Source: Dictyostelium discoideum (lineage: Eukaryota). Taken from it: 64,000 nt of DNA. The notes below the pieces were generated by a model that made no database searches, was not told the origin of the DNA, and saw only the letters and a program-made list of their open reading frames with translations. Positions within the stretch are counted from its first letter, which is position 1. Every line of letters starts with the position of its first letter. Where the stretch lies: contig CM000153.2 in the NCBI GenBank assembly GCA_000004695.1, positions 2,720,001-2,784,000 of the forward strand. The letters run 5' to 3'. Shown here one piece after another: positions 6,339 through 54,260 of the stretch. Position numbers and translations under genes: made by a program.

Positions 6339-6689
6339 GTTCCAGCCAAACTATTAAAAGTAAAAAAAAATGAAAAAAAAATAACAAAAATAATAAAAAA
6401 AAAAACAACAACAACACACACACTTTCTTTATTAATTTTTTTTTCTTTTTCTCTTTTTCATTTTATTTTTATATTAATTTTTTATTTTTTATTTTTTATT
6501 TTTTTATTTTTTTTTTAATTTCATATATATAGTTTTTAAAAAACATATTAAAAATATTAAATATAAAAAAAAATCAAAAAAAAAAAAAAAAAAATCAAAA
6601 AAAAAAAATCTTTTTTTTAAAAAATAAAAAAAAAAAGACTAAAAAAGAGGTTTGCATGCGAGCATAGAAAAAAGAAAAAAAAAAAAAAA

Positions 6690-42876: not shown

Positions 42877-44154
42877 TTATTTTCTTTTAAAAGTTGATGA
42901 AGATTTTTTAGAAGTTTTTGCAGAAGGTTTTGAAGGAGTTTTTGTAACTTTCTTTTTTTTATCATTTGGATCTTCTGGTTTTTTAATTACAGTTATAAAA
43001 GAGTCCATACGAGATTGAACACTTGTATTTTTAAATTTCTTTAATTTTTCAATACCTTGAGCGACTCTAACATCAGAGAAACCCATTTCTTCAACTAAAA
43101 ATTTATTTAAACCTTCAACATCTGGATCTTTCCATTGAAAAGGTGGTAATTGATCAGCTGGAATAACATTTGGATTTTTAAATAATTCTCTCACCTCTGG
43201 GTATGGGAAAAACTCTGGTAATGGGTATTTGGATTTATCTAAATGTTTGATTACCTCCTCCAATGATTTATGTTTTTGAATTAACTCAATTGCTCTCTTT
43301 GGACCAATACCTTTGATACTATCACAATAATCACAACCTAAAAGAATGGAAAGATCAATAAACTCATCTTGAGTTAACCCTAAACCCTCCAATACTGATT
43401 GTAATTCAAATTCTAGAATTGGCATTTTCTTTGCTTCTGAAAAGAAAAGACGTCTAAGTAGTACTGTTGAACCTAATGTCAAAGAATCCATATCCTCTGA
43501 CCCGGTTGCCCATGCTTTACCCTTCTTTACAATCTCTGCACATTGCGCTTCTGCCTCACATGGTGCCTTTACAATTGGTACACCCATTAATGTTAAAAGT
43601 TTTATACAATCTTCATTTTGTTTACGTGTAACTGTAATAACACGTTTTGCAAATTTCTGAACCTCTTCATTGGTACCAACCTCTGTTGCTTCCTTTAAAT
43701 TCTCTTTTGCTTCTTTTCTTCTTGCTTGTCTTTTTGCTAATTCACCACTCTTTAATACTGGTGCACTACCATCAAATACATAAATTGGTTTAATACCTCT
43801 TGAAATTAATTTAATTGTACGATAAAACATACCTTGTAAATGACTAAATAAAAAAAAAAATAAAAAAATAAAAAATTTTAATATTTTATTATTTTATTAT
43901 TTTATTAATTATTAATTATTAATTATTAATTATTAATTATTATTTATTTTTATTTTATTTTTTTACCTTGTAGTTTCACCAAGTTGATTTGTTAATGCCG
44001 AAGAAACATCAGCATTCATTGCAATAAGAAATTGATATAAACTTGTTGATGCATCAATTGCAATAATTCTACCAAAATAGTTTTTTAATATATTTGTTTT
44101 AATTGAAGTTGGTGCATTATCTTCAATTAAATCTGTTAATTTTTTAATTCCCAT
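42877..44154 (-). CDS. fen1: Flap endonuclease 1 (FEN-1/RAD27 family). join(44154..43967,43843..42877).
   Basis: [47 protein letters not shown]...GETTS|[25 protein letters not shown]... is near-identical in motif order to human FEN1 (MGIQGLAKLIADVAP...[30 protein letters not shown]). The 123-nt intron is GTAAAA...TTTAG. The C-terminus is a basic [19 protein letters not shown] tail. Confidence 0.9.
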
Positions 44155-46074: not shown

Positions 46075-46554
46075 ATGTCAGATAACGAAGCTTTAGATGT
46101 CGAAGACTACGCCCAAGCCGGTTCAGGTGCTTCATTAACCTTCCCAATTCAATGTTCAGCATTAAGAAAGAACGGTTTCGTCGTCATTAAAGGTTTCCCA
46201 TGTAAGATTGTTGATATGTCAACTTCCAAAACCGGTAAACACGGTCACGCCAAAGTTAACATCACTGCTATCGATATCTTCACTGGTAAGAAATACGAAG
46301 AAATTTGCCCATCAACTCACAACATTGATGTACCAAATGTCAGCAGAAAGGAATACACCGTTATGGATGTTCAAGATGGTTACTTATCACTCTTGGATGC
46401 TGGTGGTGAAGTCAAAGAAGATCTTGCCCTCCCAGAAGATGATATTGGTAAAGAAATTACCCAAATGTTAAAAGAAGGTAAAGAGCCATTAGTTTCAGTC
46501 ATCTCTGCTTTAGGTAAAGAAGGTGTCGTCTCTGTTAAAGTCAGCAACAATTAA
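46075..46554 (+). CDS. eif5a: Eukaryotic translation initiation factor 5A (hypusine-containing), 159 aa, single exon
   Basis: Hypusine loop STSKTGKHGHAK. The full length aligns with eIF5A. Codon usage is markedly more G/C-ending (aac, ggt, gtc, ttc) than neighbouring genes, consistent with high expression. Confidence 0.95.
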   Translation: MSDNEALDVEDYAQAGSGASLTFPIQCSALRKNGFVVIKGFPCKIVDMSTSKTGKHGHAKVNITAIDIFTGKKYEEICPSTHNIDVPNVSRKEYTVMDVQDGYLSLLDAGGEVKEDLALPEDDIGKEITQMLKEGKEPLVSVISALGKEGVVSVKVSNN

Positions 46555-46982: not shown

Positions 46983-47625
46983 TATTTATTAATTATTAAT
47001 TATTATTAATTATTATTTTTTTTTACTATTATTATTAATTATTATTTAACTACTAATAATAAATAAATAATAAATAATAAATAATGACAGAAAAAAAAAT
47101 AATAAATAATAATAAATAATAATAAATAATAATAAATAATAAATAATAATAAATAATAATAAATAATAATAAATAATAATAAATAATAATAAATAATAAT
47201 AAATAATAATTATTTGATTAATTTATATATAAATTTGTAGTATTTTAAAATTCAATTGATGAGTATCTAATGAAATTAATAATGGTTTGTCATGTTTGTT
47301 TAATCTCTTAAGTTGAATTATTTTAATTAAACCTGAATGAAACACTATAAACTGAGATCATTTTTAATGTTGTTGTTGGTTGATACTATTATGTTTCTTT
47401 AATCATTGATTTTAAATTCTACTACTGTTATTATTAATTCCTATTTTTGCTGTTGTTATTCAATACAATTAAAACTTTAAAACCTAAAATATACTAAATA
47501 GATCTTTTTTTTTATATTTTTTTTTTAATGACCATCACTAAATTTTTTTAATTTTTTTAAAATTTCTAAAAATAAAAAATTTAAAAAACATCACTGACCA
47601 CAAAAAATTAAAAAAACATCTGACT

Positions 47626-47634
47626 ATCCCATAA
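47626..47634 (+). promoter_or_regulatory. DUSE (Dictyostelium upstream sequence element) ATCCCATAA. A TATA-like TATAAATA lies at 47661..47668.
   Basis: Exact match to the [AT]CCCA[CT]AA consensus, about 60 nt upstream of the start of the GC-rich SRP RNA island. Confidence 0.7.
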
Positions 47635-47689
47635 AAAAATTTCATCAATTAAAAAAATGATATAAATACTGATTCTTACCATTATAAAG

Positions 47690-47975
47690 TATGCAGGATT
47701 GGGTAGCGGCAACCTGTAATCAAGCGATGCATTCGAGGCGAGGACGAGAGCATTGTTAGGACCTTTGGGACAAGCGACGCATACAGTTGATCCACACTAA
47801 CGTTGGTGTCGACATACTATCAGTCTCTAAGGATTGAAAGTAAGTTGATAATGACCAAGTCAAGGTCCAGGCTGGCAACAGAGCAGACAGAGCGAGGCAC
47901 ATCGATGGGTAGCGAGGAAAGTCGACTTAAAGTCGTCCAAAGGAAATAACAATGTAAACTCGAACAAACCTTTTT
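47690..47975 (+). ncRNA. Signal recognition particle RNA (7SL/SRP RNA), approx. 280 nt
   Basis: An island of about 50% GC in AT-rich surroundings. Alu-domain CCUGUAAUC at 47713..47721. S-domain helix-8-like GGUCCAGGCUGGCAACAGAGCAGAC at 47864..47888 (GNRA tetraloop GCAA plus AGAGCAG; compare human AGGUCGGAAACGGAGCAGGUC). Upstream DUSE and TATA box. T14 terminator at 47971..47984. Exact 5'/3' ends not determined. Confidence 0.7.
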
Positions 47976-47984
47976 TTTTTTTTT
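47971..47984 (+). terminator. T14 run; Pol III-type terminator of the SRP RNA gene
   Basis: Immediately follows the GC-rich island (...CGAACAAACC-T14). Confidence 0.6.
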
Positions 47985-48174
47985 AAAACACCGTAGAGCA
48001 ACATACTCTAACCTAGTGAAGATATGATTAAATGAAAAAGAAGAGAACTATTATTATAGAATGATAGTTGAAAAATATGTGAGAATTTATAAAAAAGAGA
48101 GTAGTTTATAAATTAAAGAAATATTATGGAAAGAAAGTTGAAAAATAAAAATAAAATTTATAATATAAGTGGCC

Positions 48175-48205
<31 letters not shown>

Positions 48206-50228: not shown

Positions 50229-50263
<35 letters not shown>

Positions 50264-51153
50264 GTTTTTTATATCTAAAATCATTTGTGTATAATAACTA
50301 AAGTTATTTATAATTTATAAATTAAAGAATTGTTCATTAACTTGTGGGATACTACATATAATATGTAAAAATGAAAAAGAAAAAAAAAAAAAAAAATGAA
50401 AATTAATCAATAAATATTAAAATTTTTAGGTGTGCCCAAACAACTTGAACCCCAATTGCGGTTAATCTGATATTATTTTTATTGCTCCAACTTTTTTAAT
50501 GGGTTATTGTGTCTCCAAAACAATTATTTTACTTTTGGTGTCCCGGCTGATTTTTTTATTTTATTTTTTAATTTTGTTTTTTTTTAGCATTATTTAAGAG
50601 TTGAGTGATTTTTAAGTTGAATCCATTTAATTTATAAAAAACCAACAACATTTTTACCAAGATCAAAAATTAAACTTTTTTACTATTATCTTATCCCAAA
50701 GGTTATAAAAAAAGAAAAAAATCTTAAAATTAAAAATCTAAATAAATTTTAGCCTAAGATCTAAATCAAGATCTGGCAAATAATTTATTAATATCCTGAA
50801 AAAAAAAAAAAAAAAAAAAAAAAATCCAAAACCTTCAACATAATGGCTTTAAAATTTGAAAAACAAATTTTTATTATTATAATTAAGAATCCGAAAAATA
50901 AAAAACAAAATTAAAAAAAAATACACCTACAAATTTATTATGTATATGTGAAGGTTCCCGATTTATTTTTTATAATTTATTTGAGGAAATAAAAAAGAAA
51001 AAAAAAAAAAAAGTTTTATTATTATTTAGGATATGGCACTTAATCCCACTAACAAGTAAAATCTATGATTAAAAATATATTGTTTTAAAATCACCAACAA
51101 ATAGCGGTAATGAATAGATGATCAGTATTATCAAATAATTATGCATTATTATT

Positions 51154-52763: not shown

Positions 52764-53233
52764 TTAATGGAAAAAAGAAAAGTTTGGTTGGAAATCCATA
52801 GTGTTGGTTGAATCTGGGAATGATTTTTGGGCATTTGGATTATTTGGATCGCTTGAGTGAAGTCCTGAGACTCTTCCTAGATTACCTAAATTACCAGCAT
52901 TATTTAAACTATTTGTAAGATTGTTGCCACCAGGTGCGGTTGTGGTTGCTGTTGTTGTATTACTATTGTTACTGGTGTTATTATTATTATTATTTTGATG
53001 ATTATTATTATTTGGATTATTATTATTATTTGAATTATTACCCATATTATTGTTGTTGGTATTTTGGTTATTGGCATTGTTATTATTGTTGTTGGTGTTA
53101 TTATTATTGTTATTAATATTATTATTATTATTATTGGTATTGTTGTTGGTATTATTGTTATTGTTGTTGGTATTATTGTTGGTGCTGTTGTTGTTGTTGT
53201 TGTTATTGTTGCTGCTGTTATTGTTATTGTTGC

Positions 53234-53265
<32 letters not shown>

Positions 53266-54260
53266 ATGTTGCTGTTATTATTATTATTATTATTATTATT
53301 GTTGCTGTTTAAAATACCATTACCAAGTGTATTATGAGTAGGAGAAGCAGATGGACTATCACCTTTTGCCTTTGGTGGTCTACCTCTCTTTTTAGGTGTA
53401 CCATCTGTGTTACTATCGGAAAATGATGTATTATTATAATCAGATTCATTCTCATCCTTTGGTTTCTTGGGTCTACCTCTCTTTTTATTGCTTCCTGGTT
53501 GTGGTACTGGTTTTGGTTGTGGATTACCTTCTTCATCCATCTTTGGTGGTCTACCTCTCTTTCTCTTTGGACCACTGGTATCTTTTGGTTCTGATGGTGG
53601 GTTTTTACGTGGACGACCTCTTGATCTCTTATCTGCTGAATTTGCTGATGATTGAGTTGGTGATGAATTAATACCCAAATTACTATTATTATTATTATTG
53701 TTGTTGTTACTATTATTATTATTATTATTAATATTGCTATTATTATTGTTATTGTTATTATTATTATTTATTGGTTGTGGTAATGATGATTGATTTTGAA
53801 TTGCTAATAAATATTAAATATTTAGTGTATATATATATATTAGAAAATATGAATATTAATATTTTAAATATATTATTTATTAATATTAGTAAAATTTATA
53901 ATTACCTAAACTTAAACCATTTAAATTGGTTCCATGCATTTGTGGTTGACCATTATTATTACCGCTATTGTTTCCATTATTACCACCTCCCATCATATTA
54001 TGACCCATTAATCCTAAACCATTTGGATTCATCAATGGTGGTGGAAGAGTTGTATGTAAATTATATTGTGGTTGTTGCATTTGTGGAGCTTGTTGATGCA
54101 AGTTTTGGATTGGTTGTTGCATTGTTTGCTGTGGTTGTTGTTGTTGTTGTTGTTGTTGTGGTTGTTGTTGTTGTTGTGGTTGTTGTTGTTGTTGTTGTTG
54201 CAATGACTGATTTTGAATTCCGTGAAGTTGTGAAAGATTTGGTAGAGTGGGTGTGCTCAT
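52764..54260 (-). CDS. AT-hook DNA-binding protein (approx. 465 aa), Q-rich N-terminus and N-rich centre. join(54260..53907,53803..52764).
   Basis: The ATG at 54260 (MSTPTLPNLSQLHGIQNQSLQQQQQQ...) leads to a GTAATT donor, a ~103-nt intron and a TATTAG acceptor. Exon 2 has five R/K-G-R-P AT-hook cores (KRSRGRPRKNP, KRKRGRPPK, KKRGRPKKPK, KKRGRPPKAK and others). Confidence 0.6.

Follow-up and report, generated by a model that had tools for sequence, protein, structure and literature searches.

A predicted full-length SRP (7SL) RNA gene with an upstream DUSE promoter layout in Dictyostelium discoideum AX4

Identity and conservation of the SRP RNA gene

The window analysed here, a stretch of 64,000 nt of Dictyostelium discoideum AX4, almost certainly carries a functional SRP (7SL) RNA gene at 47691..47970, judging from its sequence and its conservation in relatives (Table 1). 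Scanning the whole window at the Rfam gathering thresholds yielded a match to the Dictyostelium-specific SRP model RF01570 (Dictyostelium_SRP) at 47691-47968 (+) with 320 bits (E 6e-95; gathering score 90 bits), which spans the entire model (positions 1-283 of 283) and in which no non-canonical pairs were flagged. A first-pass annotation had proposed an SRP RNA gene at 47620-47990, to be checked by a search with an Rfam SRP covariance model, and this search clearly confirmed the proposal. At least one further family of the SRP clan (CL00003) exceeded its own threshold at the same site, and a permissive Rfam scan gave no additional family there. When the RF01570 structure was projected onto the window RNA, all 92 consensus pairs were standard, ten of them differing from the consensus on both sides with pairing kept. 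The RNA agrees with the consensus at 242 of 278 bases (87%) and lacks five model nucleotides (positions 33-37) located in the linker after UGUAAU, and its single-sequence MFE fold obtained a z-score of -4.2. The GC-rich island described previously was also recovered, with 39-52% GC in 100-nt windows across 47650-47949 and 47% in the SRP RNA itself compared to 21% in the window as a whole.

Table 1. Features of the predicted SRP RNA gene and its flanking signals in window coordinates
Feature	Position	Strand	Details
DUSE (Dictyostelium upstream sequence element)	47626..47637	+	ATCCCATAA (47626-47634, -65..-57) and A-run
TATA-like box	47661..47668	+	TATAAATA; -30..-23, read directly
SRP (7SL) RNA gene (predicted)	47691..47970	+	RF01570 match 47691-47968, then CC before the T-run
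Alu-domain 5' part	47691..47732	+	helix 2 (47691-95 / 47728-32), helix 3, UGUAAU
Helix 5	47745..47962	+	5' strand 47745-47807, 3' strand 47901-47962
Helix 6 hairpin	47808..47849	+	17 bp, tetraloop CUAA 47827-47830
Helix 8	47852..47899	+	symmetric loop CAGG (47868-71) / AGCA (47882-85), GNRA tetraloop GCAA
T14 run, Pol III-type terminator	47971..47984	+	read directly

The gene lies 1.1 kb downstream of the eIF5A ORF (46075-46554, +), which at 46075-46551 is an exact match to XP_639978.1 / P13651 and thereby identifies the organism as D. discoideum AX4. Relatives were found via synteny by tracing eIF5A orthologues to contigs and scanning these loci with Rfam. An SRP RNA gene was detected 0.5-1.3 kb downstream of eIF5A in seven of them, with scores of 245-312 bits, namely in two further D. 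discoideum strains (L128, L132), in D. cf. discoideum (L130, L131), D. citrinum (L122, L129) and D. dimigraforme (L123). The alignment used throughout comprises these seven loci and the AX4 window, each with the gene, 120 nt upstream and 40 nt downstream. The RNA body is 85-97% identical in the seven orthologues, the flanks 33-62%. In D. firmibasis, D. purpureum, P. violaceum and T. lacteum, no SRP gene was detected up to 10 kb from eIF5A, which in the latter three is followed by a trehalose-phosphate synthase gene instead. Only the D. discoideum / citrinum / dimigraforme group has the SRP gene located beside eIF5A.

Several other genes were noted in this neighbourhood. In the window, a gene for a FEN1-type XPG nuclease (42877-43830, -), the first exon of which is outside the long ORF, neighbours the SRP gene, and an ORF at 52764-53678 (-) encodes AT-hook-like RGRP repeats and poly-Asn tracts. 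A U3 snoRNA gene was detected between FEN1 and eIF5A in the two other D. discoideum strains (L128 2509-2717 and L132 2488-2696, both on the minus strand) and the AX4 window gave no U3 match, so the presence of the U3 gene here is strain-dependent. Downstream of eIF5A, tRNA genes are located in D. citrinum (L122 12825 and 13952, L129 7477) and in D. firmibasis (L124 11364 and 12521). Since D. firmibasis possesses tRNA genes but no SRP gene at this site, the content of Pol III genes turns over here between close species. ARAGORN detected no tRNA gene in the 64-kb window itself. A scan for sigma-70 promoters and intrinsic terminators, which are bacterial signals and irrelevant for a eukaryote, gave nothing above shuffles.

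In the D. cf. discoideum locus L131, a second SRP RNA copy was observed at 6377-6597 (-), approximately 1 kb from the intact gene. This copy scores 141 bits, is missing its first ~80 nt as well as the entire promoter, and shows substitutions in helix 8, with the T-run and some of the 3' flank kept; it probably represents a duplicate that was truncated, or a pseudogene. Duplication at this locus therefore does happen, as a 5'-truncated, promoterless copy lies beside an intact gene, and the copy in the window might likewise be a silent or decaying extra copy with the working gene located elsewhere. We regard this as extremely unlikely, as the window copy is full length with every consensus pair intact, scores higher against the family model (320 bits) than any other copy seen, and has kept the DUSE, the TATA-like box and the T-run. 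Moreover, the gene occupies the same syntenic site in eight genomes, with substitutions that preserve the structure.

Two further possibilities concern the nature of the island itself, which might represent a 7SL-derived retroposon of the Alu/B1-like SINE type, or a GC-rich stretch arisen by chance or as an exon. The window contains CCTGTAATC, a hallmark of 7SL-derived SINEs, and the GC content of the island resembles that of Dictyostelium exons. SINEs, however, are without the S domain, which is fully present here, and the RNA was found at one syntenic site and lacks an A-tail. A chance island is at odds with the Rfam E value, and no ORF of more than 48 aa overlaps the SRP RNA region on either strand. 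A coding exon at the position of the gene was consequently rejected, the longest ORF being 48 aa. Taken as a whole, these possibilities are of negligible probability, and the assignment to a genuine SRP RNA gene is retained.

A gene of this kind is already known, as the family is curated in Rfam, the organism is the best-studied dictyostelid and DUSE promoters have been published. Northern blots have also shown an SRP RNA signal in D. discoideum (PMC2175303). The value of the locus hence lies mostly in its correct annotation, SRP RNA being a universal housekeeping RNA.

Predicted fold of the RNA

The SRP RNA features considered here (the UGUNR motif, the asymmetric 5e loop and helices 6 and 8) are those defined in PMC4605306. 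Applying the Rfam structure to the eight-sequence alignment resulted in standard pairs in 95.2% of the pair cells compared to 29-39% in slid controls, in which the 3' partners were moved by 1-3 columns. Double, compensatory changes were observed at four pairs (seven cells), all located in helix 5, and the covariation score was reached by none of 500 shuffles, with the reservation that the sequences are closely related and hence represent few independent events. RNAalifold recovered helix 5 and helix 6 from the same alignment in the absence of the Rfam model. Helix 8 was not recovered in this way, which is expected since it is built around conserved non-Watson-Crick loops. Sequence and covariation together show that the RNA folds as a long helix 5 carrying helices 6 and 8, which form the S domain.

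Within helix 5, the 3' strand contains a 3-nt asymmetric loop, AAG (47919-21), with no opposing bases, resembling the 5e motif, the helix 5 loop of this type that serves as the SRP72 site (PMC4605306). The first A and the G of this loop are invariant in the eight loci, and its likeness to human 5e is positional only. Helix 6 is paired in 96% of the cells of the eight sequences; the tetraloop of the window RNA keeps the A at the third position and does not begin with G, and in L131 the loop reads GUAA. As noted in the first-pass annotation, a helix-8 motif with a GNRA loop is present, GGTCCAGGCTGGCAACAGAGCAGAC occupying 47864-47888 and its GCAA loop (47875-47878) being embedded in CUG-GCAA-CAG. 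The stretch 47863-47893 covering this part of helix 8 is invariant in all eight loci. By analogy to the family, helix 8, which carries the CAGG/AGCA loop and the GCAA tetraloop, would bind SRP54, helix 6 would bind SRP19, the loops of helix 5 would bind SRP68/72, and the Alu domain would be the site for SRP9/14.

The helix-8 motif was also searched in metagenomes, where CAGGCNNGCAANNGAGCANNCAG was found at 120 or more loci. None of the motif-bearing metagenome loci resembled the whole Dictyostelium RNA in nhmmer comparisons, and 15 of 20 loci examined turned out to be full-length SRP RNAs of unrelated eukaryotes, the other five being without an Rfam match. These findings support the helix-8 motif as diagnostic for SRP RNA, and no dictyostelid relatives were gained from them. 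Independently of this, eight of the contigs (L005, L017, L049, L102, L043, L086, L076 and L096) contain dense clusters of small RNA genes, with SRP RNA, U1, U2, U4, U5, U6, 5S rRNA and many tRNAs within 1-4 kb; the contigs originate from eukaryotes, mostly aquatic ones.

The 5' domain appears to be less canonical. The motif UGUAAU (47715-47720), which lies inside CCUGUAAUC (47713-47721; CCTGTAATC), is invariant in the eight loci, and UGUNR is accordingly present as UGUAA (47715-47719) in all of them. In the alignment, the 8-bp 5' hairpin of the Rfam model is paired in 85.9% of the cells, and the 3-bp mini-hairpin (47733-41) in 75%. A shifted helix 3 (47696-47701 / 47710-47714), consisting of the pairs 6-24, 7-23, 9-22, 10-21 and 11-20 in RNA numbering, is paired in 100% of the cells. 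In three sequences of D. citrinum and D. dimigraforme, this helix shows the exchanges U-A to A-U and G-C to G-U. With this helix, UGUAAU remains unpaired, as is the case in canonical Alu domains. The close relatives thus support the shifted helix better than the 5' hairpin of RF01570. The latter draws support from outside the set of eight, as the pair A8-U30 of the window RNA is G-C in the family consensus. With just 7 nt lying between UGUAAU and the return strand of helix 2, neither of the two 5' folds appears to leave room for a helix 4. Inspection by eye for a loop-loop pairing of the helix-3 loop with the linker revealed no consistent covariation.

The earlier proposal that the RNA comprises an Alu and an S domain consequently holds for helix 5, helices 6 and 8 and a 5' domain with UGUAAU and helix 3; its Alu part is not fully canonical, as helix 4 is not convincingly present and the domain looks reduced. 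For the D. discoideum group, the Alu domain might consist of a short helix 3 and a single-stranded UGUAAU with no helix 4, unlike the drawing of RF01570, a model that we put forward tentatively and consider possible rather than probable. If true, it would represent a minimal Alu domain in which the loop-loop pseudoknot, the defining feature of the canonical closed conformation, is missing, and binding of SRP9/14 as well as elongation arrest would need to work differently in dictyostelids. A literature search retrieved nothing specific on Dictyostelium SRP RNA structure or on the length of the RNase P RNA, which is considered below.

Promoter, terminator and other DUSE matches

The signals named in the first-pass annotation (ATCCCATAA, TATAAATA, CCUGUAAUC, the helix-8 motif and the T14 run) were all read directly, in the stretch 47400-48200, where it had located them, and the overall arrangement of DUSE, TATA-like box and T-run is as described, with the DUSE and the T-run kept in the seven orthologous loci. 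For many Dictyostelium ncRNA genes, a DUSE with the consensus [AT]CCCA[AT]AA has been reported approximately 60-63 nt before the transcript start, and genes of Pol II as well as of Pol III carry it (PMC3188802, PMC7919456). The element placed at -60 by the annotation is indeed present, its exact place being slightly further upstream, as the octamer core TCCCATAA at 47627-47634 corresponds to -64..-57 from the RNA start at 47691. In sequence as well as in distance this octamer agrees with the published definition of a DUSE. TCCCATAAAAA is invariant in all eight orthologous loci, and the octamer starts at -64 in each. The DUSE remains 100% identical even in the divergent species. Identity in the flank next to it drops to 35-60%, and comparing AX4 with D. 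citrinum and D. dimigraforme gives 35-42% for the upstream flank around it.

The box at -30 shows a different behaviour. The predicted TATA element was found as TATAAATA in the position claimed, and it is identical in four of the eight loci (the window and three others). The remaining four carry TACAAATA, TACAAATT or TTGAAATT, and in D. citrinum and D. dimigraforme the box is degenerate and not conserved as a TATA. Because A..AAAT alone is invariant, the box represents weaker evidence than the DUSE. The cross-species alignment thus indicates that constraint is much stronger on the DUSE and its spacing than on the TATA box.

Downstream of the gene, a run of at least six T follows directly after ACAAAC[C/T] in 8 out of 8 loci, and the flank beyond it, with 33-62% identity, is otherwise unalignable. 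The longest T run inside the RNA body is T3 in all eight genes, and a run of T4 or longer is present in 95% of the 278-nt slices of the window. T-runs have been described as Pol III stop signals in Dictyostelium (PMC3188802, PMC7919456). Since the DUSE serves Pol II genes too, the arguments for Pol III are the T-run, the -30 box and what is generally known of 7SL genes.

The SRP RNA gene might instead be transcribed by Pol II from the DUSE, like Dictyostelium U1, U2, U4 and U5, with the T-run being incidental. This could be argued from the occurrence of DUSEs upstream of Pol II as well as Pol III ncRNA genes (PMC7919456), from the abundance of long T-runs in a genome of 21% GC, and from the poor TATA box in D. 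citrinum and D. dimigraforme. An incidental T-run, however, is difficult to reconcile with its location within 2-3 nt of the RNA end in all eight orthologues, next to flanks that are otherwise unalignable, and the RNA body avoids T4+ runs, which nearly all window slices of equal size contain. To our knowledge, 7SL RNA is also a Pol III product in every eukaryote studied. Transcription by Pol II is consequently judged highly unlikely, and the layout agrees with that of a Pol III gene with an external promoter, the choice of polymerase being inferred. In such a gene, the DUSE (-64..-57) together with the TATA-like box at -30 would position RNA polymerase III to start at ~47691, the polymerase would read the 280-nt body devoid of T4+ runs, and it would terminate in the T14 run (47971-47984).

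The annotation had also expected the SRP gene to anchor the interpretation of further DUSE matches in the window, which proved to be true in a weak sense only: the gene provides a template for judging such matches, but they occur at chance frequency and most of them fail against it. The octamer WCCCAYAA was found eight times in the window compared to 9.1 expected, and because it is at chance frequency, the SRP gene anchors few of the others; at most two of the other seven are located in an ncRNA-like context. The significance of the DUSE of the SRP gene lies in its position and its invariance across the eight orthologous loci, not in the octamer alone. A bare octamer is uninformative in the absence of such a context, for which the SRP locus represents a clean positive control with a DUSE at -64, a -30 box, a GC-rich T4-free body and an immediate T-run.

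Five of the matches (15011, 20773, 39404, 55137 and 63569) have neither a GC-rich body nor a T-run at the expected distance, and two of these five are inside long ORFs on the opposite strand. Another match, TCCCACAA at 50349-50342 (-), is followed approximately 30 nt downstream by the TATA-like TTTATAAATTATAAATAA, then by only ~25 AT-rich nucleotides with AACCC at their end, and finally by T27. Despite this layout of promoter and terminator, no recognisable RNA body and no Rfam match were found in that stretch (50230-50349, -).

The remaining match concerns the nuclear RNase P RNA. RF00009 matched at 56136-55846 (-) with 62.6 bits, the 43-nt P3 element being absent from the alignment, and the DUSE octamer TCCCATAA is located at 56300-56293 (-), 157 nt upstream of the modelled 5' end. 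Counting 64 nt from this DUSE would place the start of the RNA at ~56236. In a predicted fold of 56236-55824 (z -3.3), the 5' extension (GGGUAUUUU.., GAUUAUUUGGUAU) pairs with the 3' tail (AUACUAAAUAAC..AAAAAUACC) just before a run of ~T39. A TGTG-box-like AAATGTC is present at 56245-56239. Runs of T4 and T5 inside the 5' extension count against the longer RNA.

Comparison with known SRP RNAs and promoters

The window RNA resembles mammalian 7SL RNA in its length of ~280 nt, in the UGUNR motif of the 5' domain, in the long helix 5 and its asymmetric, 5e-like loop of 3 nt, in the helix 6 hairpin, and in helix 8, where a symmetric loop is combined with a GNRA tetraloop. In contrast to the mammalian RNA, it is devoid of a convincing helix 4 and hence of an obvious loop-loop pseudoknot. 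Its helix 6 tetraloop is CUAA, whereas that of canonical SRP RNAs is GNAR. The promoters also differ, as human 7SL genes use a mixed internal and upstream promoter and the promoter of the window gene, consisting of DUSE and TATA-like box, is located wholly upstream.

Within Dictyostelium, a close parallel is provided by the DUSE-driven Class I RNA and snRNA genes, which share TCCCATAA approximately 60-63 nt upstream and a T run downstream, the latter at many Class I genes (PMC3188802, PMC7919456). Unlike the Class I RNAs, the product of the window gene is a universal housekeeping RNA rather than a member of a dictyostelid-specific class, and no TGTG box was found between the DUSE and the SRP RNA start.

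Promoters of the type-3-like Pol III class combine an upstream element with a TATA box, PSE and TATA in vertebrate U6 and 7SK genes, USE and TATA in plant U6 and 7SL genes. The DUSE, which we take to be unrelated in sequence to either PSE or USE, would stand in a presumably equivalent layout, with an element ~55-70 nt before the start, a -30 box resembling TATA, a T-run at the end and no need for internal boxes.
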